IMG/VR virus record: IMGVR_UViG_3300045988_131786
Location: 86,055-150,054 of that record
Length of the DNA stretch: 64,000 bases
Reading direction: 5' to 3' (one strand)
Source: a virus
Positions 1,003-62,765 of the stretch are shown here, piece after piece. How positions within the stretch are numbered: position 1 is the first letter of the stretch; each line of letters opens with the position of its first letter. The notes beneath the pieces were generated by a model. The model did not search any database and had not been told where the DNA came from. It was given only the letters and a program-made list of their open reading frames with translations. The position numbers were made by a program, and so were the translations under genes.

Positions 1003-1047
1003 AGAGAGATTGGAACGGAAGAGAAATGTTTGTTTCATTTCTCTTCC
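1003..1047 (+). terminator. Rho-independent terminator
   Basis: Stem aacggaagagaaatg / catttctcttccgtt is followed by a T-run (ttttttt). The ORF-track start at 1026 lies inside this hairpin and is therefore unlikely to be real. Confidence 0.6.
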
Positions 1048-1088
1048 GTTTTTTTACTTTATATAAAAAGATAGAAAGGAGATACCGC

Positions 1089-12142: not shown

Positions 12143-12232
12143 GGACAAAAATAATTAAAACAAAATTAGATATTTTTATAAATTCATAGAGATATAAAAA
12201 ACTTAAATGAAATGAGAAAAAGGAGGTTAAAC

Positions 12233-15200: not shown

Positions 15201-15640
15201 CCGGTGGCACTATGACTGGTACTATTAATTTTACTGTTAATAAATTAGCTTGCAATTTTAGAAGTGGTAGCAATAGCTTTCGTTCTGGTGTAATGCATCA
15301 ATCAGATGGAAATGAAGCTTTAGTTTTTGCAGTAGCAAGGGCAACTACTAGTTTTATATTTAAATGTGGACAAGATCCTGTTGGTATGACGTCTTCTACT
15401 TGGAAGAATATTACCCCTTCAATGCAAATAAGAAATCAAAGCGTATATATAAATTATTTAGTTAAAAGTGATGCAGTAGCAAGTTATAATTTATATGTAA
15501 ATGGCACTACTCGTTGCAATGGAACTTTAGGAGTAGGAAATGGTTCGAATGCGGAAATAGATTTTTTCCCTAATAGTGCTTCAATTATTGGCGCTAGAAT
15601 TAAAGCTTATAGCGATAGAATAGAATTCATATTTAGTTAA
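12233..15640 (+). CDS. Long tail fibre protein (about 1,135 aa) with internally duplicated repeat modules
   Basis: ATG at 12233 has AGGAGG 6 nt upstream; the track's ATG at 12212 lies inside the RBS. The N-terminus GQVYFAYKNVGTAEKPSYTGAIYIDT is fibre-like. Duplicated blocks are TGGGASGTWGINISGNAASANKL / SGSGASGTWGINVTGNAATATKL and ARTITLSGAVTGSVSFDGSANVTLTTSVNHTHSQYY / ARTISLTGSVTGSGTFDGSGNLSITTSTNHSHSQYL. Confidence 0.75.
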   Translation: MADNTIANAIKFLKGEEKSLPATKTEGQVYFAYKNVGTAEKPSYTGAIYIDTPIGGTQTRVKMTANADIADKAFNDSAGLNIRETYLSSLGYTDDGKQTILIKGSGNNQTKIALPIASTTKSGIVTTDAQSFGGTKTFATINSTNLTVTGSSGFNYSGIETATESKARPIWFADNSGNGKPVVNINFTYNPATQTLSVANLSGTADKANKDNAGYDIRSTYISNITLDDSIMTITKGSGATSTLSIKDKLYSGDEITTKDDLDDFIETNVFKFGHIGPIEGYNGLEKNDGIILSSSWKTTPNYGHQIFIDDSGYALRHRYRTNKVWSDWASILDSTNYNSYAPTKTGGGASGTWGINISGNAASANKLNTNAGSAILPVYFSNGVPVACSTNLGVSITGNAASATKLTSSAGSATQPIYFKDGKPVATTYSLNATVKAGVSSRIAYYSGNNEISSASSLKYYTTTNNKKAIQTILRIWGSTYGNDINTTISGKASSLSWNDGGPQIQFSTSEAGAQDGALIFTDHDSAGIGASFHFVSNQSEWSVVSKRFVAKTSVIIGQENHTANNQGYNLYVNGTEYINGILTAVGDCKFIAHGNEFNFVPTLKASTKVWFNYRQTGGQPTDGDFIINEYIFGNGANKALASIKDGLFSGAATYVRDSNNNTNNISITYSKAGQASTSWLASWNEYELGRISPANITAGKATKLATARTITLSGAVTGSVSFDGSANVTLTTSVNHTHSQYYDSNISRTKNTVLAAPNGTDGKAIFRSLVAADIPSLTKSKISDFPTSMPASDVYAWAKASTKPSYSWGEITGKPSTFTPSSHEHSYIIGYGTNTISSSSKDTPAEWGKCKCSVHWYTTSNYITDQPTQWGYLVNIGTPGEVHQLWLSQPGGAIAHRGGNANGWEGSWKVMLDSSNYTSYTVTKSGSGASGTWGINVTGNAATATKLQTARTISLTGSVTGSGTFDGSGNLSITTSTNHSHSQYLPLAGGTMTGTINFTVNKLACNFRSGSNSFRSGVMHQSDGNEALVFAVARATTSFIFKCGQDPVGMTSSTWKNITPSMQIRNQSVYINYLVKSDAVASYNLYVNGTTRCNGTLGVGNGSNAEIDFFPNSASIIGARIKAYSDRIEFIFS

Positions 15641-38411: not shown

Positions 38412-39474
38412 TCGTGACGCGAACTTCTTATATTTCTATAAGCGCTGACTATCTCTTACTTAACTAATATAAGTTAAGGAAACCGTTTCGGCATTTAACT
38501 AGCTTCGTTACCTAAAACTAGACTATGTACTAATAATAGCCCTACTTCCCTGCCCAGAAGGCTTAGGGAATAGTCGATACAGGTTCTTTAGACGTTTTTC
38601 CAGGTTCTTTTTTTAATAATGTCTGCAACGGTTGATTTTGATATACCATAATTTTTAGCTAAATTTTCATAAGAAATATTATTTTTTTCTCTATCTTCCC
38701 TAATCTGTTTAACTAATTCAGCATTTAATTTAGTATGTCTTTTTCTAACTTTAAATACTTCTGGCATGATTAAACCATATCTTTTTCCAGACCATATATT
38801 TAAAAAAGAATTAAAATGTAGCCTATCTTTGTATTTCTCATTATATATTTTTGTTGGACTTTCATTATTTAGATAAGCTTTTCTAAGTTCAATAATTTCT
38901 GACTCTGTTAATTTTGCTTGACCCCAAATTTCTTTTTTTCTATGCTCTAAAGTTTTCGGTTTAGAGCAATTTTTCCCACCATCTTCTACATTATAACCAT
39001 TAGGAACTTTAGTATTATAAAAATTAATATAATATATTTCTAATTCATTTAAAATATTTATATCATCAATATCTTTTACCAAAATTTCATATTTAAAGCT
39101 TTCATATCCATATTTTCTAAAAGCTTTATGTAATAAAGAATTATAATCAGAATTATTTGGATTTTTATATGCTGATTTATGTGCTGCATATCTTGCTTTT
39201 GGATTCACAGTTTGTCCAATATATTTTTTATTATTTTTTAAATTTGTATAACAATATATAATTCCCATATGTTATACCTCCTTTCATAATTAATATGAAA
39301 GGAGTCAGAAATTATTTAACTACTTACGTCCAAAGTTTCCCACGGGACTCCCTTATTTTTCAATTTAGGGTCCCCCGTTAGCATACATACCATTGTTTTG
39401 GTGTATGTATACCCCTAGCAGTCACTAGGCAAAGTTTTTCATTGTCCCAACACCCTTTTAATAGGGTTGAACAC
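38412..39474 (-). mobile_element. Group I intron (boundaries approximate) interrupting the DnaB-like helicase gene and carrying a GIY-YIG homing endonuclease ORF
   Basis: The helicase reading frame is broken between the two exons. The intervening DNA contains GC-richer structured segments (agtttcccacggga..cccgttagc ; ctgcccagaaggcttagggaatagtc) that recur at about 90% identity in the second intron at 44080..45158. Confidence 0.6.
38588..39268 (-). CDS. GIY-YIG homing endonuclease (intron-encoded), with a C-terminal helix-turn-helix
   Basis: GIIYCYTNLKNNKKYIGQT...R...H (GIY-x10-YIG); EDGG; C-terminal HTH (ISKSTVADIIKKRTWKN). GGAGG RBS upstream. Confidence 0.8.
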   Translation of the reverse strand: MGIIYCYTNLKNNKKYIGQTVNPKARYAAHKSAYKNPNNSDYNSLLHKAFRKYGYESFKYEILVKDIDDINILNELEIYYINFYNTKVPNGYNVEDGGKNCSKPKTLEHRKKEIWGQAKLTESEIIELRKAYLNNESPTKIYNEKYKDRLHFNSFLNIWSGKRYGLIMPEVFKVRKRHTKLNAELVKQIREDREKNNISYENLAKNYGISKSTVADIIKKRTWKNV

Positions 39475-45864: not shown

Positions 45865-46854
45865 TTATTTTATACTATAACCAAAATCTTTGGCATGAAA
45901 ATATTCTTGCCAATAATCTTCACGTTCATTTAATTCTTCTGGTTTTACTTTTTCAATTACTTCAAAAGTAAAATTTTCTGGTCCACTCTCTTGCATTGCT
46001 GGATATAATTTATTGCGGGTTGGCGTTTCTGCGCCTACTCCACGTTTGATATGCTGTCGCCAACGCTCTCGAATATTGACCGCCTGCCCAATATAACATT
46101 TTCCATCTAAAATATTTGTAATTTTATAAATACCTGTAATATCTTTATCTCCAATGACTCTACCAATTAAAGCATTATAAGGTTTTTCATAGTACACTTT
46201 ATAAATTACTTTATTAATAGCATCTGGATAACGAATATTAGAACTTACCTCACGTAGTTTTTTAATTTCTGCAACATCTTGTTCTGATAATTGGAGTCTA
46301 TAAAAATCTTGCTGAGACTCTTTTTCTTCTTCACGTTTTTTAGCTTCAACAGCCGCATCTACAAGAGACTTATATTTTTCTAATTCATTTCGGAATTGAA
46401 GAATTTCATTTTTTTTATTTTTAGAATCTTCATTAAAACCTTTTACAATTTCTTCAACAGATTTTAAATAAGCATCTTTATAAGAACTTCTATCTTCTTC
46501 AAGTTTAGCAGATAATTTTTCTGCTTCTCTATCATAAGTATCATTTAATCCATTAATAAATTCTTGTAACTTCATAGATTCTTTATTATAAGAGTCTTTT
46601 AACTTTGTAATTTCACTCGTATAATTAAAAGATTCTTTAGTCAATGCTCTAAGAGTACCTCTCATTTTAGCTATTTTAGATTCATAATCTTCATTAGTTA
46701 AATTAAGAAATTGTTTATTAGATTCTAATTCTTCAATATCAAATTCTAATAATGATTTAGTTTTCTTTAATTTTGAAATTTGATAAATTTCCAGACAAAT
46801 TATAATCAAACCTAAAATACCTAAGAAAAACATTATTAAATATAATACATTCAT
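45865..46854 (-). CDS. Membrane-anchored coiled-coil protein with a C-terminal GIY-YIG nuclease domain
   Basis: N-terminal transmembrane helix VLYLIMFFLGILGLIIICL; about 180 aa of coiled coil (KLKDSYNKESMKLQEFINGL...); C-terminal GIYKITNILDGKCYIGQAVNIRERWRQH...ENFTFEVIEKV...REDYWQ. Confidence 0.6.
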   Translation of the reverse strand: MNVLYLIMFFLGILGLIIICLEIYQISKLKKTKSLLEFDIEELESNKQFLNLTNEDYESKIAKMRGTLRALTKESFNYTSEITKLKDSYNKESMKLQEFINGLNDTYDREAEKLSAKLEEDRSSYKDAYLKSVEEIVKGFNEDSKNKKNEILQFRNELEKYKSLVDAAVEAKKREEEKESQQDFYRLQLSEQDVAEIKKLREVSSNIRYPDAINKVIYKVYYEKPYNALIGRVIGDKDITGIYKITNILDGKCYIGQAVNIRERWRQHIKRGVGAETPTRNKLYPAMQESGPENFTFEVIEKVKPEELNEREDYWQEYFHAKDFGYSIK

Positions 46855-49648: not shown

Positions 49649-51985
49649 TCATACTTTTGTTATTGAACTAATATTACCATGCTTAATTAACTGATTTCCA
49701 ATAGCATTTCTACCTTGCAGAGGAATATCTTTAGCAGAAATACAAATTGAATTTGGTACTCCCACTAGAAGAATAGAATCTTCATCAGAAATTAAACTTG
49801 CGCCAATAACCTCTCCAGATACATCTGTTGGTTTATAACAAATTAAGCCTTTTCCTGCTCGTTTTTGTCTAATAGCTTCTTTAAGAGAAACTTTCTTTCC
49901 GAGACCTTTCTCAGAAACAATAGCAATTTGGTCATCTTCATGACGGACTGGTAAAGCTGAAACAACCTCATCTCCATCTGCAAGATTAATACCTTTCATA
50001 CCCATCGTCGCACGAGAGCTAGAAGTAATCTCACTAGAAGCAAATCTAATCATCATACCTTTTTTGGTAATAAGAAGAATATCTTCATCCTTAATAAGAT
50101 TTACAGAAGCTAAACTATCATCTTCCCGCAAATTAATTGCCGCAAGACCAGTTTTCTTTTTAGTCTTAATATATTCTTCAAGACTTGTTTTCTTAACGAT
50201 ACCATTTTTAGTTGCAAATAAAACATAATTTGCATCAGTATCTCTATAAATGGAATAAATGAGAGTTGGCTTTTCATCACTTTCCATTTCAATAAGAGAT
50301 TGTAATGACTGACCTTTAGTTGCATTTGTTCCTACTGGAATATTATCAACTAAGATACGATACATTTTACCTTTATTTGTAAATACCATAAGAGAATCAA
50401 TAGTATTTGTGCGGATAACCGCAGATACAACATCATTCTCGGTTTTAATACCTTTTCCATTTCTTCTCTGGGTGCGGAAACTAGAACTTGGGATTCTCTT
50501 AACAAGACCACCTTCTGTCATAACCACAACACATTTTTCTGGTTCTACAAATGCAATTTCTTTTTCTTCTGGTTTAATTTCAATATGAGTTAATTCTGTT
50601 TTTCTAGGATTACCATATTTTTTTACAAGCGTAAAAATATTTTCAACTAATATATCTTTACGTTTATCAGCACTTTCAAGCAATTCAATTAAATTTGCTA
50701 TAGTTGCATTTAGTTCATTTAATTCATCTTTAATTTTAATTCCGTCTAATTTTGTTAATTGACCAATCGTCATTTTTAATACACAATCAGCTTGATGAGA
50801 ATTAAAATTCCATTTAGTCATTAAATTATTTTTTGCTTCTGCTTTATTATTACTATTTCTAACTATTTCAATTATTTCATCAATATGAGCAATAGCAATT
50901 AATAAACCTTCACATTCTTCTTTTCTTAATTCAGCTTTTTCTTTATCAAAATTATATTCACGAACTAAACATTCATCATTATGTTTATATAATAATTGAA
51001 AATATCTCTCAGTATTTACGAGTTGAGGAATTTTATCAATTAATAAATTTTGATTAGCTGAATATGATTTTTGTAAATCAGTTTTTTTATAAAGCATTTG
51101 TAATACTTTATAGGGGTCAGCTTTTTTATCACAAATTATTTTAATATTAATTCCTTTTTTACCAGAATTATTTAGAATATCTGCTACACCAGGTAATTCA
51201 TCTTGGTCATATAATTTTTTAAAATCTTCCATTAAATCTCTTACACAAGTTTGATAGCAGATTTCTGTAATAATAATTGTATTTTTCTCAACTTCTGCTT
51301 TAGCTCTTAAAACAACTTTACCTTTTCCAGTCTTTAAAATAGTATCTAACTCTTTCTGATTTATAATTATACCGCCAGAAGGAAAAGAAGGACTTAATGT
51401 ATAATCCATTTTTCCTGTTTTAATATAATTAGCATAAGCCGTTGATACTTCAGCTAAATCATAAGGTAACCATTTTTGGGCGATTGTAGTTCCAATCCCT
51501 TCACTACCATTAATCATTAATGTTGGAAGTGGAGAAGGAAGTACCTCTGGCCACTCAACTGTTTCATCAAAATTCATGATGAATGGAACATTTTTCTTTT
51601 TAATTCCAGTAAACATCTCTAATCCAGCTTTACTAAGTCTTACTTCTGTATAACGACTAGAAGCTGCTTCTGGAATAATTTGGTTACCATTAGAACCATG
51701 AAATTCACAAAGAGGAACATTATTTGTAAATCCCTGAGACATACGAGCAAAAGTCTCATAAATAGCTGTATCACCATGCGGCCAAAGCTCTGCGATAACT
51801 CCACCAGATACCTTGGCGCTCTTTACGTGAGGTTTATTTGGAAGATAACCTCGTCTATACATTTCATATAAACAAGCTCTTTGTCCCGGTTTTAATCCAT
51901 CAATTGCAGGGAAAGCTCGCTCTACATTGGTTTGATAACAATAATCCAAAAAGTCTTGTGACATCTCTTCAATAAAATCTATCAT
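49649..51985 (-). CDS. Type II DNA topoisomerase, DNA-cleavage (GyrA/ParC-like) subunit
   Basis: ELWPHGDTAIYETFARMSQGF matches the GyrA HPHGD motif region. 778 aa. Confidence 0.8.
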   Translation of the reverse strand: MIDFIEEMSQDFLDYCYQTNVERAFPAIDGLKPGQRACLYEMYRRGYLPNKPHVKSAKVSGGVIAELWPHGDTAIYETFARMSQGFTNNVPLCEFHGSNGNQIIPEAASSRYTEVRLSKAGLEMFTGIKKKNVPFIMNFDETVEWPEVLPSPLPTLMINGSEGIGTTIAQKWLPYDLAEVSTAYANYIKTGKMDYTLSPSFPSGGIIINQKELDTILKTGKGKVVLRAKAEVEKNTIIITEICYQTCVRDLMEDFKKLYDQDELPGVADILNNSGKKGINIKIICDKKADPYKVLQMLYKKTDLQKSYSANQNLLIDKIPQLVNTERYFQLLYKHNDECLVREYNFDKEKAELRKEECEGLLIAIAHIDEIIEIVRNSNNKAEAKNNLMTKWNFNSHQADCVLKMTIGQLTKLDGIKIKDELNELNATIANLIELLESADKRKDILVENIFTLVKKYGNPRKTELTHIEIKPEEKEIAFVEPEKCVVVMTEGGLVKRIPSSSFRTQRRNGKGIKTENDVVSAVIRTNTIDSLMVFTNKGKMYRILVDNIPVGTNATKGQSLQSLIEMESDEKPTLIYSIYRDTDANYVLFATKNGIVKKTSLEEYIKTKKKTGLAAINLREDDSLASVNLIKDEDILLITKKGMMIRFASSEITSSSRATMGMKGINLADGDEVVSALPVRHEDDQIAIVSEKGLGKKVSLKEAIRQKRAGKGLICYKPTDVSGEVIGASLISDEDSILLVGVPNSICISAKDIPLQGRNAIGNQLIKHGNISSITKV

Positions 51986-53907
51986 TCTTCACTCTCCCAT
52001 AAATCATTTGCTTTATTTCCATTAGCTAATAAAAACTGTCTTCTTCCAGTAACACTTGTTCCCATTAACATTTCAAGATGTTTTTCAGCTTTTATAGCAT
52101 CTTCAACGACTAATTGTTTTACGTTTCTTGTTTTTGGGTCAAGAAGAACATCTGATAATTCATCTGCATCGCACTCTCCAAGACCTTTCATACGATTTAC
52201 TCTATATTTTTCACCAATATGTTTCTTTTTATAATCCTCTAAAGCCTGAGCATCTTTAATATAAATATATTCATTTTTATTTGTTGTTATTCTAAATAAA
52301 GGCGCATATGCTACATAAAAATGACCATTTATAATAAGTTCTGGACATAAACTCCAAAGATTAACAGCAATTAACATTCTGATATTTTGTCCGTCTGGAT
52401 CACCATCTGTATCTGCAATAATCTTACCATAACGCAATTTACTTTTATCATAAATTAATTTGCCCTTATCATTAAGCTCTAATCCTAAAGCTTTAATAAG
52501 ATTATTCACTTCTTGATTAGCCATTACTTTTTCATTTTTATTTTTAAAACTATTTATCATTTTTCCTCTAATCGGGAAAATAGCCTGATACTCAGCTATT
52601 CTCGCACCAACTAGACCTGAAGCAGCACTATCCCCCTCACAGATATGCAATTCCGCCTCCAAACGATTTTCAGTAGAACAATCAACTAACTTAGATGGAA
52701 GATTTGCTAATTTAGATTTTTTATTACCTTTTGTGGCTCTAGCAACTTCACGAGCTTTCTTTGCCGCATTTCTAGCTCTTCGCGCAAGTAATGCCTTTTC
52801 AATAATTGTTTTTACATCTTTTGGATTTTCATTCATCCATTCAACAAAATTTACATTAATTGCTTCAAGAATAAGAGCCTTATCAATGTCTGTTACACGT
52901 ACTTTAGTCTGGCTATCATATTTAACAGATTTTGCTTTTAAATTAAATACAATAATTAATCCTTCATTTAATTCTGCGCCAGTTAAATTTGTTTCATCTT
53001 TTTTATATAATTTATTGTCATTTGCATATTTATTTAATGCACGAGTTAAATTTGCTCTAAGGGTAGTAAGATGAATACCACTTTCTACTTTACCATAATT
53101 GACATAGCTTACAATATCTTCTGAATAACCAGAAGTATAAGTCATACAAATATCAATTAAATCATTACCTTTAACAATATGTGCATTAAAACGCTTTTTG
53201 ATAATTTCATCATCTTTAACTTTTTCATCCACAAGGTCATTAATACCATTCTTAGAATGAAAATCTTCTTCTTTTCCATCAATAATCAATTTAATAGTTA
53301 AAGTTGGACTAAGAGCAGACTCTTCTTTAAATAATGTGCGGATGTCATTCAAATTTGCTTCTGGATTTTGAAAGAATTGCGGGTCTGGAATATAGGTAAC
53401 TTTAGTGCCATGAACCCCAACTTTTTCTTTAGTAATTTCTCTTTTCTGGAATAAACCATCCTTATACCAAAGTGTTTCTCTTTGACCTTTACCATCAGAT
53501 GTAGTAATCATTGAGCTGGATGAAAGGAAGCAAACAAGCTTCATACCAATTCCATTAAGTCCAAGTGCACTACCACCATAAATAGAATCATCAGAATCAT
53601 CATATTTACCAGAAGTATTAATTACTGAAAAACATTCAGAAAGCATTGTTTCACCATCTGGTCTTTCTACTCCTGGAATAAAACCTTGTGCAAAATCTTC
53701 ACAAGTATATTCATTTTTCTTTGTATCCACACTAATGATAATTTCAGTTCCATGACCGATAATATGTTCATCATGTGCATTTGCAAATAGCTCTTTTAAA
53801 AGCTGTGTACTATATTCAGTAGAACCACAATATGTACTAGGTCTTTTTCTTGTAAATTCTCTAGCATCAATATGTTGCGTACTATTCTCATTATACTTTT
53901 TTGACAT
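51982..53907 (-). CDS. Type II DNA topoisomerase, ATPase (GyrB/ParE-like) subunit
   Basis: Toprim ICEGDSAASG and PIRGKMIN motifs; N-terminal GHKL ATPase region. Confidence 0.8.
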   Translation of the reverse strand: MSKKYNENSTQHIDAREFTRKRPSTYCGSTEYSTQLLKELFANAHDEHIIGHGTEIIISVDTKKNEYTCEDFAQGFIPGVERPDGETMLSECFSVINTSGKYDDSDDSIYGGSALGLNGIGMKLVCFLSSSSMITTSDGKGQRETLWYKDGLFQKREITKEKVGVHGTKVTYIPDPQFFQNPEANLNDIRTLFKEESALSPTLTIKLIIDGKEEDFHSKNGINDLVDEKVKDDEIIKKRFNAHIVKGNDLIDICMTYTSGYSEDIVSYVNYGKVESGIHLTTLRANLTRALNKYANDNKLYKKDETNLTGAELNEGLIIVFNLKAKSVKYDSQTKVRVTDIDKALILEAINVNFVEWMNENPKDVKTIIEKALLARRARNAAKKAREVARATKGNKKSKLANLPSKLVDCSTENRLEAELHICEGDSAASGLVGARIAEYQAIFPIRGKMINSFKNKNEKVMANQEVNNLIKALGLELNDKGKLIYDKSKLRYGKIIADTDGDPDGQNIRMLIAVNLWSLCPELIINGHFYVAYAPLFRITTNKNEYIYIKDAQALEDYKKKHIGEKYRVNRMKGLGECDADELSDVLLDPKTRNVKQLVVEDAIKAEKHLEMLMGTSVTGRRQFLLANGNKANDLWESEE

Positions 53908-54131: not shown

Positions 54132-54290
54132 ATGGAAAAGAAAAAAAGGGAAAAAGTTTAGTTTAATTATTATATATAAATAATATTTTTTATTAATATA
54201 GGGCGGTTTTGGAAATAAAATGGAAATAATCTCTCTTTAAATAAATATAAGAAGACAGGATACTTAATTGCATCCTGTCTTTATTTTGTT
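54132..54290 (+). ncRNA. Candidate small RNA of about 160 nt, from the predicted + strand promoter to a rho-independent terminator, antisense to the topoisomerase ATPase leader region
   Basis: Promoter as above. The terminator hairpin 54252..54281 (aagacaggat/atcctgtctt) is followed by ttattttg. Only tiny peptides are possible in the interval. Confidence 0.3.
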
Positions 54291-54767: not shown

Positions 54768-54866
54768 TTTCTATCACCTTTATTTCTCTTTTAAATATAT
54801 TACTGTAAAAAAGTTATAAAATCAAGAAAAGCCCTATGCAGATATAAAATCTACATAGGGCTAAAA

Positions 54867-55325
54867 TTAACCTTGTGCTTCTTCTTCATCAGAAGTATTT
54901 TCTTCTGTTGAATTACTTTCATTATTATTTAATGATTGTTGTGCCATCATATAAGTTATTCCATTGGCAGTATTTTCTTTAGTGGCTTTTACTGCATAAA
55001 CTGCAAAACCCATTACTTCAGTTACCACTGCTCCAATGAGAGTAACTAATGGAGAGAAATCCATTGGATTTCCTGTCATGCTTGAAATTTTTAAACTCTG
55101 TGCGGTTGCCCATCCTGTAAATAATTCCACAAGGGTACAATTTATAAATAAAAACCCAATTAAAAACTTAGTTGTTGACATTTTTTTGGGTTTCCGCATT
55201 TCTCTTTTTTCTTCGTGCAGTTTTTGTTTTCTTTCAAGAATAACTTTTTCTGCATTCCAATATATTTCTTCTCTTTTAATTTCGTGTTCTTGTTCACGCA
55301 GACTCTTCTTTCTAAAAAGTCCCAT
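54867..55325 (-). CDS. Putative holin (two transmembrane segments, charged termini)
   Basis: Hydrophobic segments FLIGFLFINCTLVELFTGWA and LVTLIGAVVTEVMGFAVYAV. Charged N- and C-termini. Immediately downstream of the endolysin gene. Confidence 0.45.
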   Translation of the reverse strand: MGLFRKKSLREQEHEIKREEIYWNAEKVILERKQKLHEEKREMRKPKKMSTTKFLIGFLFINCTLVELFTGWATAQSLKISSMTGNPMDFSPLVTLIGAVVTEVMGFAVYAVKATKENTANGITYMMAQQSLNNNESNSTEENTSDEEEAQG

Positions 55326-55327
55326 AA

Positions 55328-57034
55328 TTATTTCTTTCTAAGATAATCTTTAGAAGCAAATCCAGTATAAATTACATTTTTATAAGTAAATTGGATATAA
55401 AGCCAAATATCACCATTAGATACATTATAATATCCATAATTTTTTACTTTTGTTCCTTTTGGAATTGCTACTAAAACTGATTTTTTAGTTCCAGCGCCAT
55501 CTCTAACATTTAAAGTTCCACCGTTAGTACTTACTACATAAGTTCCTGCAAGATTTTTATTAAAAGAGTCTGCTCCTTGCTTTGCTGTAACTTTTTTAAT
55601 GTTAGTTGTAGCTGTAGTTGTTTGTTGCTTTTTATTAGCAACATATTTATAATAACTATTTTTTTCACAAGATGTATATGCATATCCTTTTGCTGCGCCA
55701 GGCCATACGATCTTATACCAATTATTACTTGTTTTTCCAAGAACTTCAACTGCAGTTCCCGCAGTAATTAAACCATAAGAAGTATAAGAAGTTCCATTAC
55801 CAGCACGAATATTCATTTCGCATAAAGCTGTTGCAGTTCCAATTCCTTTTCCACAATATGATTTATTTCCTTGTGGAACTTTATTTCCACCTGTAGTAGT
55901 AGAAGTACCTGGATTAAAACTTACATGAGCGCCTTTAGTTACATTTGTAGCTGTATGTGAACGTTCATTAAGAAGAATATCTCCAGGAAGTAAATATCCA
56001 TAACCAGAGGTATATTTACTATCAGTTAAAATAGTAAATCCTGCTCGACTATATGCAGCTCTCATATCGCCTGTATAAGTTGCGCTAATAGTTTGAAGTG
56101 CTGGAATACCGAGTAAATATCCTACAGCTCTAGTATTTGCAATAACGCCAGCAGAACAATCATCTTCACATTTTTTTGTAATTTTAGATGGATCATATCC
56201 AACCAATCTTAAATTATTCCAGTAGCTATCTCTTCCATATTGGTCATATCCAATATTATCGTTTAAAGCTGCGGCACATCCTAGTTCTGCCAATTTCAGA
56301 CCTACTTGTGGATTTTTTGTATATCTAATTACACAATTCCATGGTCTATTATACCAAGAGCGGAGATACCACTCGTCACCAGTTTGGTCACCTGCGGCGC
56401 CACCATGATATTGACCATTCTCATCATGCCCAGAATTAGAAATATAATGAGTTCCTTTACTATAAATATAATTATCATAATTTCCCATATTAGTTACTTT
56501 ACCTCCTGCATATTTATTATAATATTGCTTTCCATAATTTGCTCTTGTGGTTTTTACGCTACTTCCTGTATTTGCTGGACATTCAAATCTCGTTAGCACT
56601 ATATCAGATGCTTCTTGAACACTTTTTGCATTTTTTAATGTTTTTAATACTGTTGGATAAGTTGTAGTTAATTCTTTTATTAACCATTCTAATTGTGTAT
56701 TTTCATCACTGATTGATACACCTTTTGATTTTACTAAATCATATAAACCCGCTTTTCGACTAGGGCTAGTCCATTGACACAAACCATAGCCATAACGTTT
56801 GCCAGGTAAAGGATTTAAAAATGTAGCTCTAGAAATTCTACCAGAATCTATTGCCGCAGTATAAGTAACATCATTGTAATTTTGTCCATTTTGAGAAAGT
56901 CGTTTTAAACATAGCATTTCTACTCTATTGGCTCTCATGCCAGATTCAGCATAAATATTTCCCATTAAACCTGCAACGCCATATTCATTTCCAAGTTGCT
57001 TTAATAAATAATCCCATATGTTCTTGTCCGTCAT
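55328..57034 (-). CDS. Endolysin (peptidoglycan hydrolase) with an N-terminal catalytic domain and C-terminal SH3b-like cell-wall-binding repeats
   Basis: N-terminal GLMGNIYAESG-type lysozyme/glucosaminidase-like motif. C-terminal repeats such as TSNNWYKIVWPGAAKGYAYTS and GDIWLYIQFTYKNVIYTGFASKDYL are typical of SH3b. Confidence 0.6.
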   Translation of the reverse strand: MTDKNIWDYLLKQLGNEYGVAGLMGNIYAESGMRANRVEMLCLKRLSQNGQNYNDVTYTAAIDSGRISRATFLNPLPGKRYGYGLCQWTSPSRKAGLYDLVKSKGVSISDENTQLEWLIKELTTTYPTVLKTLKNAKSVQEASDIVLTRFECPANTGSSVKTTRANYGKQYYNKYAGGKVTNMGNYDNYIYSKGTHYISNSGHDENGQYHGGAAGDQTGDEWYLRSWYNRPWNCVIRYTKNPQVGLKLAELGCAAALNDNIGYDQYGRDSYWNNLRLVGYDPSKITKKCEDDCSAGVIANTRAVGYLLGIPALQTISATYTGDMRAAYSRAGFTILTDSKYTSGYGYLLPGDILLNERSHTATNVTKGAHVSFNPGTSTTTGGNKVPQGNKSYCGKGIGTATALCEMNIRAGNGTSYTSYGLITAGTAVEVLGKTSNNWYKIVWPGAAKGYAYTSCEKNSYYKYVANKKQQTTTATTNIKKVTAKQGADSFNKNLAGTYVVSTNGGTLNVRDGAGTKKSVLVAIPKGTKVKNYGYYNVSNGDIWLYIQFTYKNVIYTGFASKDYLRKK

Positions 57035-57088
57035 ATTTTTCTCCTTTCAAAATTTTATAATAAAAAAGGAAGACCTTTTGGTCTTCCT

Positions 57089-58336
57089 TTACATTAATTC
57101 AGCTTGTTCAGCTATTTTACTTCTATAAATTTTTTGTAATTCAATTTCACCATAATAGTCGCAACCTCTGAATACCTCAGACATTTTTCGCATACCATTA
57201 TTTGCACCACTATATAAAATTGAATCTACTTGATGTTTGGTATCTCCATCAATAATACAAATACTATCTTCTCCAATACGTTGAAGAGCAAGTCTCATTA
57301 ATTCAACACTTAAATTTTGAGCTTCTGTAATATATATGCCTGCATTTAATCCAGTAGTATCAAATCCACGTAAGTCAGACATTGGTAATAACATAAGTTT
57401 TCTGTCAGTAATTAATCTTTCTACTTCAATTCTATCGCCAAGTTTGCTAGAAAGCATATTACCTATTTGTGAATCCAATAACTTATCATTTTTATCGCCT
57501 GGATAATAGCCAAGTTTTGCGGCGCCTTGAGCGGCAATTGTATTACAAAATACTATAATTTTATCTATCTTGCGCTTTTCAAGCTGCTCAAATAGAAAAC
57601 CGAGACTTAAATAACTTTTACCAGAACCCGCACGTCCTTGAATCATTGTAATTTGATTATTATTAAAAGATTCTAAAGCTGCGCATTGGTAAGCATCTTT
57701 TGGAGTAATTTTACCAAACATATAACTTTCAGTTTTATAATAATGAAGTTGTTCAAATCCATTCTCAGTTCTTTTATATTTATCTACTATTTCTCCTTGC
57801 GGATTTTTAATAAATAAATATTCATTAATTAAACAATTGAATTTTTTAGAAATTTCCTTGTCAAATAAATCTGCATAAATTTGTGCTAATTCTTCATCAG
57901 AAGAATAAGTAATTTCTTTAAATCCTGTATAATCATCAGTGCTTTTTTCTACAACTGAGATTATATGGTCATTATCAAAGAAAATTGTTGCTAGTGATCT
58001 TAAGCATAAATCATTAGAACAAAAATAAACTTCGTCAGGATAATTATAAGCAGAAATTAAGATTCTACTATCATTATTATCTGGTAAATTATATTTTTTA
58101 ATTAATTCAGATAAATCATAATAAATATCAGTAATGAACTTTTCTTTATTTTTATCTAAAATTCTAGTTAAATGCCTTGCGGCATATTTAACATCAGCAT
58201 CTTTTTTATCAGAACTTTTTATGTCTTCCAATTCCCGCAATGAAACTGAAGAGATAATTACTTGTTCTTCTGGATTATCAAATAAAGTATCTGCAGTTAA
58301 TAGCAGACTACAAGTATCATAATAGATATTTCTCAT
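57089..58336 (-). CDS. PIN-domain plus PhoH-like ATPase fusion (PhoH2/YlaK type)
   Basis: N-terminal PIN-like YYDTCSLL...D. C-terminal Walker A GRAGSGKSYLSLG followed by PhoH-like motifs. Confidence 0.65.
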   Translation of the reverse strand: MRNIYYDTCSLLLTADTLFDNPEEQVIISSVSLRELEDIKSSDKKDADVKYAARHLTRILDKNKEKFITDIYYDLSELIKKYNLPDNNDSRILISAYNYPDEVYFCSNDLCLRSLATIFFDNDHIISVVEKSTDDYTGFKEITYSSDEELAQIYADLFDKEISKKFNCLINEYLFIKNPQGEIVDKYKRTENGFEQLHYYKTESYMFGKITPKDAYQCAALESFNNNQITMIQGRAGSGKSYLSLGFLFEQLEKRKIDKIIVFCNTIAAQGAAKLGYYPGDKNDKLLDSQIGNMLSSKLGDRIEVERLITDRKLMLLPMSDLRGFDTTGLNAGIYITEAQNLSVELMRLALQRIGEDSICIIDGDTKHQVDSILYSGANNGMRKMSEVFRGCDYYGEIELQKIYRSKIAEQAELM

Positions 58337-58633: not shown

Positions 58634-59059
58634 TTATTTTTGACCTCTATTACGATTGCGCCTGATTTTTTGGTAAAACTTTTCCTTTTCCGCGATGTAT
58701 TCTATTAAGGTATCTTTCATTTCTTTAAGGGAATTTTCATTTTCTTTAATATCTTTTTCTCTTCTTCTAATTTCTTTTATAAGTAATTTAACTTCACGAT
58801 TTTCTTCATTATAGTATGGATTAAATTTAAGCAAACTATGAAAATCTTTTAAAGCTTTTAATTCTTTTTTAGATTCTTTAATTAAACGCTTTAGAAATTT
58901 AATATTGGCACGAGTTTCTGCAATCTGTAATCCAGTTTTTTCATTCATCATATCTGCATCTTCTGGATGGCAATGAGCTTCACCATCATAAATACTTCCA
59001 TCATTATCTATAATAGTATATTTAGCAATTCCATTATGATATATATAAGTTGTTTTCAT
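58634..59059 (-). CDS. Hypothetical coiled-coil protein
   Basis: ORF. Confidence 0.35.
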   Translation of the reverse strand: MKTTYIYHNGIAKYTIIDNDGSIYDGEAHCHPEDADMMNEKTGLQIAETRANIKFLKRLIKESKKELKALKDFHSLLKFNPYYNEENREVKLLIKEIRRREKDIKENENSLKEMKDTLIEYIAEKEKFYQKIRRNRNRGQK

Positions 59060-59194
59060 ATATCGAATCTCCTTTATTTTATTAAAAAATTATACAATAA
59101 AATAAGGTAATTATCAAATTTAGACATTTTGCTCAAAAAATTTGTATAGGCGAGTGGAAACCAACAAGCGGACCTGACACTAGATACGGGTATT

Positions 59195-59225
59195 AAAAAA
59201 GGAGACCTATAAAAGGTCTCCTCAT
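59195..59225 (-). terminator. Rho-independent terminator downstream of the flotillin-like gene
   Basis: On the - strand, ggagacc ttttata ggtctcc followed by tttttt. Confidence 0.6.
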
Positions 59226-59227
59226 AA

Positions 59228-60775
59228 TTACTCATTTGTATCTATATTTGTTTCTTTAAAAGATTCAACAGCTTTTGTTCCAAGAACGCCAGCTAAAAGA
59301 GATTTAATGTCAATACCAAGAGATTCACTTAGTCCCTCAGAAACCTGAGTTACATTAGTCATAATATCTCCAGCAAGTTTAGATGTATCTCCGCCAAACA
59401 TCATAATCTTATCAACATTTGTATATCCTTTACCAACAGCTTCAGCGATTGCAGGTAACTGCTCGAAGTAAAGTTTAAGTGTTTCAAGTTTCATGTTAAT
59501 AACCGCCGCATCCTGGTAGTTTTTCATTGCTTCCGCTTTCTTCTGAAGACCTTCTGCTTCAGCTTCAAGTTTAGCTTTAATTGCAGCAGCTTCAGCCTCA
59601 CCTTTAGCTTTTGTTGCAGCTGCATCAGCTTCACCCTGAGCTTTTACTGCATCTGCAAGTGCTTTTTTAGCTTCAGAATCTCTCTGTGCTTCTGCAAGAG
59701 CTGCTTCTGCCTGTTTTGTTCTTTCAAACAATTCAGCCTCAGATTTCTTCTGAGTTTCATACAGTTTAGCATCAGCTCTCTGCTGTGCTGCATACTTCTC
59801 AGCTTCAGCGGTCTTTTTAACTTCAGCTTCCAGAGCGCGCTCTTTGATAGCGACTTCTCTTTCTTTTAACTCAATCTGTTTTTCTTGACGAGCAATATCT
59901 GCTTCAGTAGCAGCAACATCTTTAACCTGACGCTGTCTCTCATCCTCAATAGCTTTTGCTGCAGCAGCCTGCGCTTTGCGGGTATCCGCACTTTTCTTTA
60001 AATCTGCCTGTTTGATTTCAAATTCATTGTTACGAACTGCAATTTGTTCAGCAGCTGCAACTTTAGCATCATTGGCAGCTTTAGAGTTCTGAGCTTCTGC
60101 AATAGCAACTTCTCTTTCAGCATTAGACTTAGCAATAGCAGCATTTTTAGAAATCTGTGCCATATTGTCCTGACCAAGAGCAGTGATAAGATTTTTCTCA
60201 TCCTCTAACTTCTGAATATTGCAGGACTCAATCCAAATACCAAGAGCATTCATGTCCTTCTGTGCTTTTGCTTGAACTTCATCTCCAAAAGCCTTACGGT
60301 CATTACATAACTGCTTTAATTCCTGGGTTCCAATGATTTCTCTCATGTTACCCTGTAAAGAATCCTGCAAAGACTGCTCAATCTGCTCTTTAGACATATT
60401 AAGGAAGTTTTTCATAGCTGCGGCAACCATCTCAGAGGTAATACCTTTTTCTTCATCTTTAAGGTCATTCTCAGTAAGGACTCTTACTTTTGCAACTGCA
60501 TCAATATTTACACCAATAAAATCCTTAGTTGGAATATAACCATTTGTTTTAATGTCAATAGACATCTGACGCAATGTTAAAGTATCCAAACGTTCAAAGA
60601 AAGGAATCTTAATACCGGCTTTACCAATTAAAATTCTAGGTTCTTTGTGGAAACCAGAAATAATGTAAGCTGTATCCGGTGGAGCTTTAACATATCCTGA
60701 AGCAATTACCGCGATAACGACAACCGCAAGTAAAACAAAGGGTACGAACGGTAAGATAGTTGTTAGAAAATTCAT
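59228..60775 (-). CDS. Flotillin / SPFH (band 7) domain membrane protein
   Basis: N-terminal transmembrane helix ILPFVPFVLLAVVVIAVIASG. SPFH core GVNIDAVAKVRV... Long Ala/Glu/Lys-rich coiled coil (EAEAA...) typical of the flotillin family. Confidence 0.75.
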   Translation of the reverse strand: MNFLTTILPFVPFVLLAVVVIAVIASGYVKAPPDTAYIISGFHKEPRILIGKAGIKIPFFERLDTLTLRQMSIDIKTNGYIPTKDFIGVNIDAVAKVRVLTENDLKDEEKGITSEMVAAAMKNFLNMSKEQIEQSLQDSLQGNMREIIGTQELKQLCNDRKAFGDEVQAKAQKDMNALGIWIESCNIQKLEDEKNLITALGQDNMAQISKNAAIAKSNAEREVAIAEAQNSKAANDAKVAAAEQIAVRNNEFEIKQADLKKSADTRKAQAAAAKAIEDERQRQVKDVAATEADIARQEKQIELKEREVAIKERALEAEVKKTAEAEKYAAQQRADAKLYETQKKSEAELFERTKQAEAALAEAQRDSEAKKALADAVKAQGEADAAATKAKGEAEAAAIKAKLEAEAEGLQKKAEAMKNYQDAAVINMKLETLKLYFEQLPAIAEAVGKGYTNVDKIMMFGGDTSKLAGDIMTNVTQVSEGLSESLGIDIKSLLAGVLGTKAVESFKETNIDTNE

Positions 60776-60827
60776 AAATTCTTTTCTCCTTTTTATTTAG
60801 TTTTCAATGTACTATTTATTCAAAAAG

Positions 60828-61390
60828 CTACACAGCTTTTTGTTCATTAAATTTAATTTTCATATCTTCAATAATTGTATCTAAAGAAACTGGAAAACAA
60901 TTATGTGCATCAACTGCTACATTATACAGATATGAAATATTATTATAAAACTTATCTTTAAAATGCGTATGACCCGAAAGCCCGCAAATAGCTTGATGAA
61001 GAGATTTAATTTCTCCATTACTTGTTACTGTTGGATAATGACTTAAATAAAAATGATATTTTTTATATTTAAGCATTGTAGCATATCCTTCATCAATAAT
61101 GCCGATTTCAGAGTAAAGGCGGCATCGAGTCGAGGTATCGTGATTCCCACGAACGAAATGTTTATTTCCATTTAATTGCCGCAGACATTCAAGTCCATGT
61201 TCATTATCGCATAACATCAAATCACCAAGAATATACAAATCGTCTTCTGGTTTTACGATTGAATTAAAATTCTTAATAATTGCTTCATTATGCTCTTCAA
61301 CAGAAGTAAAACCTCTTGGTTCATAAATAAAATCTTTATTATGACCTAACCAAAGTGGAGATCACTTGTTAAATAAATCATTCCACTCAT
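60828..61390 (-). pseudogene. Calcineurin-like metallophosphoesterase whose frame breaks about 15 codons after the start. It could be a frameshifted pseudogene, a sequencing indel or a recoding site.
   Basis: Frame A 61390..61346 reads MSGMIYLTSDLHFG then a stop. Frame B, at -1, continues WLGHNKDFIYEPRGFTSVEEHNEAIIKNFNSIVKPEDDLYILGD...GNHD...GHTH. Confidence 0.5.
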
Positions 61391-61391
61391 T

Positions 61392-62135
61392 TTATTCTTC
61401 ACCAACCTTTCTCCATATTCGTCCTCCTACGGTTGAATACCGAGAAGAACCAGCTATACATTTTCCAATGCTTTGTCTATTTATTTTTTCTACTCTTGAT
61501 GCTTCACTAATACTATCATAATAAACAATATCTTTAGGATTATCTTTTTTTATACCATAAATAGCAGTTCTCCTTTTTCGAGTTTTCATTTCTGGAATAA
61601 TAACTTTATTATTTTCATCTAAATAACGAAAAATTAATCCATTACAAGAATAAACGTCTCCATCGCAAATTTGTTTAACTGAACTTGCTCTTGCGTCTCT
61701 ATCCCAACCTTGTTTTTCAGCTGCGTCATGAAGAGAATTATAAATTTCTAAAATTTCATTTTTTTCATTTACTAAAGCACATTTTTTACTAACTTTTTTA
61801 ATATATTTTTGAGTATTTTCATGTGCAAGAGAATTTGATGTTGTGCAAGTTGTTTGATTATATCCGTTAGGAACTAAAGAACTATAATGAATAATTTCAT
61901 AATGCTCATAACCCTGCATTTCTTCTATTGTTAAAAAATCATCTTTTAAAATTTCAAAAGAAAAATTTTTAACTCCATATTTTCTAAAAGCCTTATACAA
62001 GGGATAATTATACTGAGGATTATTTTTATTAAAAGCGGCATTAATATGCTCTTTCCATCTTTTATTAACCCTTGTACTAGAACCAATATAAATTTTATTA
62101 TTTATTTTATTAGTAATTTTATAAACAGTTTTCAT
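61392..62135 (-). CDS. Free-standing GIY-YIG homing endonuclease (Seg-like)
   Basis: VYKITNKINNKIYIGSS...R...H...N motifs. Its stop codon abuts the start of the phosphoesterase gene. Confidence 0.75.
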   Translation of the reverse strand: MKTVYKITNKINNKIYIGSSTRVNKRWKEHINAAFNKNNPQYNYPLYKAFRKYGVKNFSFEILKDDFLTIEEMQGYEHYEIIHYSSLVPNGYNQTTCTTSNSLAHENTQKYIKKVSKKCALVNEKNEILEIYNSLHDAAEKQGWDRDARASSVKQICDGDVYSCNGLIFRYLDENNKVIIPEMKTRKRRTAIYGIKKDNPKDIVYYDSISEASRVEKINRQSIGKCIAGSSRYSTVGGRIWRKVGEE

Positions 62136-62237
62136 ATATAATATACTCCTTTTTCTTTCATTATATTATATAAAAAAGAAAAATAATATATTATATATTT
62201 TTGACCTACATTTTAGACATTATGACAAAAATGTAAA

Positions 62238-62765
62238 TCACTGGTCAGGTAAATCAATTGTAATACCTCCTTCATTTACTTTAGCGATTGCAAAATAAGT
62301 ATATTTTTCAGAAAAAGTTGGTTTTTCAAACTGTTCATTCATTCTACGAATAACTCCTCTAGGAACATAAGCGAGTTCATCGTTTTTTCTTAATTCATTT
62401 CTGCTTAAACAAGTTTCAAGAGGAAGCTCAAAGCTAAAAGGAATAATTTTAACATCTTTAAGATTTAAACTATCAAGTAATTTATTTCTTGATTTCTGAT
62501 TAAGCTGAGTAGCATCCGCAATAACAAAATCAATTTTTTCATCAAGATATTTCTGAATAGTATCAATATATTCTTTCCAAACTTCTTTTTCTTTATCAAA
62601 ATATTGAATATTTTTATTTTCACGAAGTTTAGCAAAACGAATAGCATCTCTTGAAACTATTTCAAAAGTATTCTTTCCAATTCCGTCTACAATTTCTTTT
62701 ATAGAACGAAAAGTAGTAGATTTTCCAGAACCAGGTATTCCACAAGCAACATATAAAGTTGTCAT
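62238..62765 (-). CDS. P-loop polynucleotide kinase-like (AAA_33 / Pnk N-terminal domain-like) protein
   Basis: LYVACGIPGSGKSTTF Walker A plus RDAIR. About 175 aa, as in the kinase domains of T4 Pnk-like enzymes. Confidence 0.5.
   Translation of the reverse strand: MTTLYVACGIPGSGKSTTFRSIKEIVDGIGKNTFEIVSRDAIRFAKLRENKNIQYFDKEKEVWKEYIDTIQKYLDEKIDFVIADATQLNQKSRNKLLDSLNLKDVKIIPFSFELPLETCLSRNELRKNDELAYVPRGVIRRMNEQFEKPTFSEKYTYFAIAKVNEGGITIDLPDQ

Follow-up and report, generated by a model that had tools for sequence, protein, structure and literature searches.

A putative phage-encoded flotillin of cellular ancestry and mosaic build in a clade of large gut phages

We analyzed computationally a stretch of viral DNA of 64,000 nucleotides (positions 86,055 to 150,054 of the IMG/VR record IMGVR_UViG_3300045988_131786; the window, below, means this whole stretch), in which one gene on the minus strand appears to encode a flotillin. 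Bacterial flotillins are debated organizers of membrane microdomains, membrane fluidity, and envelope-stress tolerance, and their role in phage infection is almost unexplored. The gene is a complete, ATG-started open reading frame (ORF) of 515 amino acids (aa) occupying exactly 59228..60775, and it is present in a single copy, as no second SPFH gene was found in the window by tblastn. The features read from the gene and its immediate flanks are as follows, with hydrophobic segments scored on the Kyte-Doolittle scale in a 19-residue window and the confidence of the structural model given as the predicted local distance difference test (pLDDT).

59228..60775, minus strand: flotillin gene; ORF with Band_7 and Flot domains, matched by the FloT model over residues 47-496 (198.6 bits)
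60786..60792, minus strand: ribosome-binding site AAAGGAG, 10 nt 5' of the flotillin ATG, read from the sequence
60701..60757, minus strand: predicted N-terminal hydrophobic membrane anchor, residues 7-25, ILPFVPFVLLAVVVIAVIA; Kyte-Doolittle score 3.05, predicted helix
60116..60688, minus strand: SPFH/Band_7 domain, residues 30-220; Pfam PF01145, E=2e-21, alpha/beta fold with pLDDT 70-80
60176..60595, minus strand: SPFH core of apparently cellular (Lachnospiraceae) type, residues 61-200; from identities, domain tree with bootstrap, and GC content at third codon positions (GC3)
59432..60172, minus strand: Ala/Glu/Lys-rich coiled-coil region of phage-family type, residues 202-448; from predicted helices, composition, and identities
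59741..59935, minus strand: segment apparently exchanged recently between phage lineages, residues 281-345; 97% aa and 92% nt identity to phage contig L001, synonymous divergence (dS) 0.385
59396..59632, minus strand: Flot domain, residues 382-460; Pfam PF15975, 31.6 bits against a cutoff of 27
59199..59223, minus strand: intrinsic-terminator-like hairpin and T-run directly 3' of the flotillin stop codon; 10 pairs, 5 of them G-C

All testable sequence features that define the flotillin family are present in the window protein. Band_7 scored 77.2 bits against a cutoff of 23.6 and covered profile positions 2-175 of 176; Flot exceeded its gathering score by a narrow margin, with the assignment backed by alignment to the C terminus of flotillin-1; and the NCBIfam FloT model (NF058507) matched nearly end to end, the aligned residues corresponding to profile positions 52-474 of 477. 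A preliminary description of the locus, drawn from the letters alone, had read here a 515-aa phage flotillin/SPFH protein with an N-terminal transmembrane (TM) helix, an SPFH domain, and a very long Ala/Glu-rich coiled coil; each of these parts is present, in a phage with hallmark genes, and the domain search did not assign the ORF to a coiled-coil family without an SPFH core. Among solved structures, the closest by sequence are flotillin-1 (E=1.6e-43) and flotillin-2 (E of ∼1e-31), with QmcA at 7e-6, and Foldseek ranked the flotillin complex first (E=4e-20), followed only by HflK/C, stomatin, prohibitin, QmcA, and erlin. The AlphaFold2 monomer model, which was used solely for secondary structure and the SPFH core, consists of an N-terminal helix, an alpha/beta core, and two very long helices (residues 202-313 and 324-448), and its core superimposes on the Band 7 domain of flotillin-2 (1win) with a TM-score of 0.74 and a root mean square deviation of 2.7 Å. 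Residues 200-450 comprise 26% Ala, 14% Glu, and 13% Lys, with 29 EA/AE dipeptides and one Pro. The N-terminal anchor is a prediction based on the single strongly hydrophobic segment of the protein and leaves the choice between a single span and a re-entrant segment undecided. Homologues number in the thousands and are named flotillin in their sources, which, together with the clear purifying selection described below, puts the reality of the ORF far beyond chance. Judged by these comparisons, the phage ORF encodes a genuine and functional flotillin that resembles the bacterial FloT/YuaG type.

The window belongs to a tailed phage of ∼178 kb. It carries genes for a tail-fiber-like protein, an endolysin, a holin-like protein with two TM segments, PIN-PhoH, a Pol III-alpha-type DNA polymerase, NrdD, both topoisomerase II subunits, an NAD-dependent ligase, RecJ, a Dda-like helicase, DnaB, and primase, as well as three GIY-YIG endonucleases and phage-only PHROG families. 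We found no tRNA in the window and, by megablast, no near-identical deposited phage genome; flotillin copies 91-97% identical to that of the window occur on IMG/VR contigs of up to 177,698 bp, and on the contig of that length (IMGVR_UViG_3300045988_135203) a 97%-identical copy has the same neighbors. The earlier placement of the gene among replication and lysis genes agrees with our annotation, in which PIN-PhoH, the endolysin, and the holin-like ORF, and further on topoisomerase II, ligase, and DNA polymerase, lie 3' of flotillin on the same strand. The nearest neighbors, including the two genes that bound the flotillin slot, are the following.

60828..62257, minus strand: metallophosphoesterase (Metallophos) gene, left-hand slot boundary; interrupted by an 881-nt GIY-YIG cassette
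58634..59059, minus strand: orf141, conserved downstream slot neighbor, soluble and coiled-coil; in most slot-carrying loci, at 24-54% identity
58333..58584, minus strand: orf83, hydrophobic N terminus (weak here) and acidic tail; its end overlaps the PIN-PhoH start
57089..58336, minus strand: PIN-PhoH ATPase, 415 aa, right-hand slot boundary; Pfam PhoH 4e-28, PIN_4 3e-10
55328..57034, minus strand: endolysin with the Pfam domains Phage_lysozyme2, ELLD, and SH3_3
54867..55325, minus strand: holin-like protein directly after the endolysin; TM segments at residues 54-72 and 94-112

The gene order orf89 (Zn-ribbon-like), AAA_33 kinase, Metallophos, flotillin, orf141, (orf83), PIN-PhoH, endolysin recurs in three groups of phages, namely, G1 (the window, L009-L013, and the 79%-identical L003-L005 set), G2 (e.g., L001, of 141,987 bp), and G3 (L022 and L023). 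Relative to the proteins of the window, identities between groups are 27-51% for GyrB, PhoH, AAA_33, and RNase H, compared with 66-71% for flotillin. A survey anchored on PIN-PhoH gathered at least 294 related viral stretches; the slot was fully covered in 61 loci, 36 with flotillin in it and 25 without. The PhoH tree unites the flotillin-bearing phages in a single clade, in which the window's group is basal, and places the flotillin-less relatives as the sister clade, a topology that fits a single gain. The ratio of nonsynonymous to synonymous divergence (dN/dS) is 0.03-0.18 among phage flotillin pairs with unsaturated dS (0.14-0.54), indicating that the phage gene is under selection, and is 0.03-0.05 for pairs of chromosomal Waltera flotillins. 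These data bear on whether the gene could be a misassembled piece of bacterial chromosome or a decaying recent pickup, a reading that could draw on its 63-67% identity to chromosomal Waltera/Acetatifactor flotillins and on the fact that some flotillin-carrying "viral" or metagenome-assembled genome (MAG) contigs are clearly cellular or misbinned (e.g., L024 and L036). However, the same slot appears in dozens of independent assemblies from different samples, phage genes lie on both flanks, the ORF is intact and constrained, its codon composition is largely ameliorated to the phage, and its synonymous divergence from Waltera is saturated; synteny and selection effectively refute the artifact or passenger explanation, to which we give next to no weight.

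Four other IMG/VR contigs of 67-290 kb carry a flotillin in unrelated gene contexts (L027, 7941-9452; L028, 7977-9509; L029, 8001-9473; and L030, 7929-9458). Their neighbors are of phage type, including tail fiber, NAMPT with PRPP synthetase, SbcC-like nuclease, T4-type RNA ligase, and homing endonucleases, and in the trees the flotillins of these contigs fall within separate lineages of bacteria. Unrelated contexts and separate bacterial branches together show that these four are independent captures, so that at least four such events took place. In L027, a gene for a DUF3592 membrane protein lies upstream of flotillin.

The proteins nearest to the window flotillin in cellular genomes are the chromosomal flotillins of Waltera intestinalis, W. 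hominis, W. acetigignens, and Acetatifactor MAGs, and those of other Lachnospiraceae and Clostridia are 51-61% identical to it. The chromosomal Waltera/Acetatifactor loci comprise L034, L035, L037, and others, with flotillin at 5001 to ∼6560. With full-length sequences, the syntenic phage clade, the Waltera clade, and the two together were each recovered in 100/100 bootstraps. The sequence comparisons indicate that a cellular flotillin of Lachnospiraceae type was acquired a single time, in the common ancestor of large phages (∼100-200 kb, from gut metagenomes) that form one clade, and then kept at one slot. The copy in the window appears to be a mosaic in which a cellular-type SPFH core is joined to a coiled coil and C terminus of phage-family type, with modules swapped after the acquisition. 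The three parts differ in their affinities: (i) the SPFH core (residues 61-200) of the window's group is 79% identical to Waltera and 71% (at most 81%) to other bacteria but 39-40% to the other syntenic phage copies, which have in common a divergent phage-type core, 39-41% identical to any cellular protein; (ii) the coiled coil (residues 201-380) of the window is 77% (at most 87%) identical to G2/G3-type copies, 58% to Waltera, and 53% to other bacteria; and (iii) in the C-terminal ∼120 residues, G1-G3 phage copies and Waltera are 62% identical (at most 66-67%), compared with 45% (at most 55%) between Waltera and other bacteria. Partial trees point the same way. For the SPFH region (residues 26-200), a phage clade without the window's group was obtained in 60/60 bootstraps and monophyly of all phages in 6/60; for residues 201-500, phages and Waltera grouped in 60/60, with Waltera nested within the phages in 47/60. 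Transfer of the C-terminal module of Waltera from phage to host is possible. A search for a cellular source of the phage-type core yielded metagenomic proteins alone; most were fragments, none came from an NCBI genome or bore a cellular organism name, and this word-index search also missed full-length phage proteins.

The timing of these events differs along the gene. In residues 281-345, dS between the window and L001 is 0.385, compared with 0.74-1.22 or values not computable because of saturation in all other segments of the gene, and this low dS together with the 92% nucleotide identity suggests a recent phage-to-phage exchange of the segment. Against Waltera, dS is saturated in every region. 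GC3 is 0.25 in the flotillin gene, with its highest value (0.33) in the SPFH core, between a phage background of 0.13-0.19 and 0.59-0.65 in Waltera; saturated dS and intermediate GC3 together suggest an old uptake that has been largely ameliorated. The basal position of the window's group in the flotillin-bearing PhoH clade fits an ancestral cellular-type core, whereas the raised GC3 of the core fits its later acquisition. A recent host-to-phage transfer of that core, which we also considered, is unsupported given the saturated dS. The gene combines what marks a host-derived auxiliary gene, that is, a cellular outgroup, a phage location, selective retention, and intermediate GC3.

How might such a protein act? 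By homology to solved flotillin, HflK/C, stomatin, and prohibitin structures (9bq2/9l3g, 7vhq, and 8z5g), the N-terminal hydrophobic segment would anchor the protein in the host cytoplasmic membrane, the SPFH domain would lie on the inner leaflet, and the long coiled coil and C-terminal Flot domain would drive assembly of a large oligomeric dome that fences off a patch of membrane. The joint claim of flotillin identity, cellular origin, and scaffold mechanism is, in our judgment, very likely correct. In Bacillus subtilis, FloA and FloT are under the control of sigma-W, which is triggered by membrane stress including phage infection (PMC8581546), and DynA, a flotillin-linked membrane-repair dynamin, changes when phage lysis occurs (PMC8844932). 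Produced in infected cells, in which expression of host genes is presumably impaired, the phage flotillin could supply or override the envelope-stress flotillin function that Firmicutes would normally switch on when infected, so that the membrane would stay fluid, energized, and intact through a long infection until the phage holin and endolysin trigger lysis. That the phage benefits from its own flotillin by keeping the membrane functional until lysis is the reading we favor, tentatively and by analogy, over the alternatives set out below, although the sequence data do not separate this membrane-maintenance role from hijacking of the host flotillin, scaffolding of phage proteins, or superinfection exclusion. 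The more general statement, that flotillin-bearing phages remodel or protect the host membrane during infection, is probably true.

The affinity between phage and Waltera C termini admits a second interpretation, in which the phage protein co-assembles with the host flotillin through its coiled-coil and C-terminal modules, as flotillin-1 does with flotillin-2, and thereby reprograms or poisons host microdomains. The grouping of phages and Waltera for residues 201-500 and the closeness of their C-terminal ∼120 residues, relative to that between Waltera and other bacteria, speak for it; most phage copies have a strongly divergent SPFH core, as a subunit of altered function might; and DynA, genetically linked to flotillin, delays phage lysis (PMC8844932). 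Yet the window copy has a normal, cellular-type SPFH core, which speaks against a poison subunit in this phage, and the Waltera coiled coil (residues 201-380) is closer to other bacteria (62%) than to phages (48-58%). Moreover, both the host assignment and co-assembly are putative. We regard this hijacking as unlikely, and its concrete example, the disabling of a flotillin/dynamin/Psp membrane-repair response that slows phage-induced lysis, as doubtful to the same degree. A takeover of host microdomains in the wider sense would have the phage flotillin co-assemble with or replace host cages, which its C-terminal ∼120 residues, specifically shared with Waltera, could make possible. It would put the integrity of the membrane, and when or how efficiently the cell lyses, under phage control and counter flotillin/dynamin/Psp-type repair as a last line of defense; we also consider this rather improbable. 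Exchange of modules among co-infecting phages, and sharing with Waltera as a two-way phage-host gene flow driven by the interaction, would belong to that takeover and share its low likelihood.

The lysis genes nearby invite a different explanation, namely, that the flotillin serves as a scaffold for membrane proteins of the phage, concentrating or sequestering the holin, and so setting the timing of lysis, or gathering replication or assembly factors that are attached to the membrane. The roles in localizing replication factories or lysis proteins that the preliminary description suggested are speculative. A scaffold function for membrane protein complexes is commonly ascribed to flotillins. 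The gene is located a few kilobases 5' of the endolysin and of the holin-like gene with its two TM segments, all on one strand, the orf83 family of small proteins with a hydrophobic N terminus is conserved nearby, and the groups whose flotillins are closest in coiled coil and C terminus are likewise closest to each other in endolysin (62-67%) and holin-like protein (51-54%), against a backbone of 27-51%. Nevertheless, flotillin seems to end its own transcription unit at the terminator-like hairpin after its stop codon, the lysis genes next to PhoH vary or are missing in several flotillin-bearing relatives, and the independently captured flotillins of L027-L030 have entirely different neighbors; we hold the scaffold explanation to be quite unlikely. 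Further strong terminator-like hairpins of 11-14 pairs lie at 57065..57090, 54830..54862, and 54252..54281 (minus strand), the exact ends of the PIN-PhoH, holin-like, and RNase H genes, respectively. Hairpins after flotillin, PIN-PhoH, holin-like, and RNase H genes suggest that the region is split into short transcription units. Terminator-like sites number 9 in all, against 3.4 expected by chance, and promoter prediction was uninformative (40 sites against 51 expected by chance). A 53-aa ORF at 59074..59235 (orf53) overlaps the hairpin after flotillin and is patchily conserved, and it is unlikely to be a gene.

The preliminary description had also put forward orf83 as a small membrane ORF and a candidate NfeD-like partner. 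Its membrane character is not confirmed in the window, where the copy has no clear TM segment (Kyte-Doolittle maximum 1.0), although its G2 orthologue has a strong one (2.7). The NfeD assignment failed: orf83 has no Pfam, PHROG, or PADLOC match, and no NfeD was detected (E≤0.01-0.05) among the neighbors scanned in the window, the G2 phages, L027-L030, and Waltera, where the chromosomal flotillin is instead accompanied by a GNAT acetyltransferase, a 126-aa protein, and a SecB-like protein. From its sequence, orf83 is probably helical and acid-tailed and is not NfeD-like, and we read its translation as coupled to that of PIN-PhoH, not of flotillin. The other slot neighbor, orf141, has no TM segment on the Kyte-Doolittle scale and no significant Pfam or PHROG match.

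The accessory distribution of the gene in its family, present in some phages and absent from others, and the exchange of its modules between lineages are typical of genes under conflict and could point to competition between phages, with a membrane cage blocking entry of superinfecting phage DNA, or to a hijacked defense or antidefense component. The preliminary description had raised a defense connection, citing a putative occurrence of SPFH domains in some defense-associated operons. This connection fell away on inspection, as PADLOC gave no match for flotillin, orf53, orf141, orf83, or the Metallophos protein, and for PhoH only weak RecD/Mad8-like ATPase matches; no partner effector gene is found among the flotillin neighbors; a full-text literature search for SPFH together with anti-phage found no functional study; and purifying selection is strong over the whole protein, unlike in typical arms-race genes. 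We judge a role in competition or defense to be very unlikely.

Several observations weigh against our own account as well and limit how far it can be pressed. The FloT match falls short of the equivalog cutoff of 700 bits, so that equivalence to B. subtilis FloT cannot be assumed, and the AlphaFold2 model is of moderate confidence (mean pLDDT 61, with the C terminus below 50). The trees were built by neighbor joining on simple distances, and the gene is recombinant. The host assignment is tentative, with a GC content of 31.5% in the phage and of ∼47-49% in the Waltera loci. Flotillin is missing from 25 of the 61 related phages and is therefore dispensable for the basic life cycle of the family. 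Proximity to the lysis cassette is weak evidence, since PhoH lies between and a terminator-like hairpin separates the two. Finally, expression, membrane localization, and oligomerization of the phage flotillin, and any effect of it on infection, are predictions.

Other parts of the window bear signs of mobile elements. The 881-nt insert in the Metallophos gene (61338..62218) carries a GIY-YIG ORF at 61392..62135 and is flanked by the direct repeat GTCATAAT (62226..62219 and 61345..61338); precise excision yields a 182-aa ORF that is collinear with the uninterrupted gene of L009, including the DxH motif, and at its 3' end the insert contains a second copy, diverged and frameshifted, of the first ∼13 codons of the gene. 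The same cassette sits at the same site in the G2 phage L020, with an 89%-identical endonuclease. Its boundaries look group-I-like (the 5' exon ends in U and the insert in G), and no Rfam match to a group I intron was obtained at E≤1; the insert could be an intron or an intron-less homing cassette. A GIY-YIG ORF also splits the GyrB-like topoisomerase subunit in L009 (14857-17303), L013, L016, L018, and L019, for example, into a 517-aa piece followed by the endonuclease and then the remainder, whereas the window copy is intact (51982..53907, 641 aa); in this core replication gene, the presence of homing elements is polymorphic. PIN-PhoH consists of two adjacent ORFs, seen as two BLAST hits per locus, in many relatives (L132-L136, L138, L139, L142, L146-L148, L151, L153, L155, and others), which could reflect a split gene, a frameshift, or an insertion. 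The remaining GIY-YIG ORFs are at 45865..46854 (minus strand), where the domain is C-terminal behind an N-terminal part of ∼200 residues with a faint LMBR1-like membrane-protein match, and at 38588..39268 (minus strand), which carries an HTH_3 domain. At ∼21300, gene orientation and GC skew flip together, from plus strand and positive skew up to ∼21 kb to minus strand and negative skew from ∼22 kb to the end of the window; this is a divergent junction between the replication/lysis block and a plus-strand block in which the tail-fiber-like ORF (12212..15640, 1,142 aa) adjoins a giant ORF of 2,648 aa (1026..8972, plus strand), whose sole match is the phage-only family phrog_14959.

The rarity of such proteins in phages, noted in the preliminary description, agrees with our searches: the window protein matches no PHROG, and tblastn found it in 8 of 50,697 deposited phage records, all below 50% identity and none with an annotation of the gene. 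Phage SPFH proteins are mentioned in two papers (PMC13239085 and PMC13384950), one of which calls the reason for their presence "unclear." Our full-text searches found no study of a phage-encoded flotillin, the closest items being short SPFH annotations or a phage that integrates into the host floA. The phage flotillin is thus a member of a known family in an essentially undescribed viral context, and it adds to the PHROGs a family absent from them. Selective retention throughout a clade of abundant, large phages of gut metagenomes, together with the independent captures by unrelated jumbo phages, suggests that manipulating SPFH scaffolds pays off for phages. The clade offers a natural experiment, in which relatives with and without the gene, and with cellular-type or phage-type SPFH cores, can be compared for membrane integrity, lysis timing, and infection, and the Waltera/Acetatifactor-like Lachnospiraceae are a lead to the host of this uncultured phage family.

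Virus-encoded SPFH proteins have already been annotated in Rhizobium phage Pasto, Vibrio phage pVa5, Streptomyces phage StarPlatinum, phages GIB1 and X1, and many giant viruses, but these are mostly of 170-340 aa, stomatin/HflK-like, and without the flotillin coiled coil or Flot domain. Matches in BFVD are 10-17% identical to the window protein, apart from a single entry of flotillin length (A0A679DKI1, 22% identical). The closest likeness is to cellular flotillins, that is, B. subtilis FloT (YuaG) and those of Clostridia such as Waltera intestinalis and Clostridium sp. TF08-15, with which the window protein has in common the order of N-terminal anchor, SPFH/Band_7 domain, Ala/Glu-rich coiled coil, and Flot domain, and, for the Waltera/Acetatifactor proteins, 63-67% identity and comparable purifying selection. 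Unlike these, the window copy is encoded by a phage, lies in a conserved phage slot, and appears mosaic. It is also 37 residues shorter than the Waltera protein (552 aa), lacking an N-terminal extension, which may stem from start-codon calling, and 11 residues of an insertion in the SPFH core. The Waltera locus likewise lacks NfeD but has the GNAT acetyltransferase nearby, as does the yuaFGI operon, in which the NfeD partner is YuaF. The eukaryotic flotillin-1/flotillin-2 complex (PDB 9bq2 and 9l3g) aligns with the window protein over both the SPFH-plus-coiled-coil and the C-terminal parts at ∼25% identity, a match from which we infer a dome-shaped large oligomer. Eukaryotic flotillins, however, attach to the membrane by acylation and a hairpin instead of an N-terminal helix and form a hetero-oligomer of two paralogues, whereas the window has a single gene. 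In Escherichia coli, HflK/HflC-FtsH and the SPFH-NfeD pair QmcA-YbbJ also place a helical, wall-forming region after the SPFH fold, but HflK/HflC and QmcA are far weaker matches than the flotillins, with ∼300 aa, short helices, and no Flot domain, and no paired paralogue, NfeD, or FtsH gene lies near the window flotillin. Through the link of HflK/C to lysogeny of phage lambda, these systems nonetheless illustrate that SPFH cages can matter to phages.

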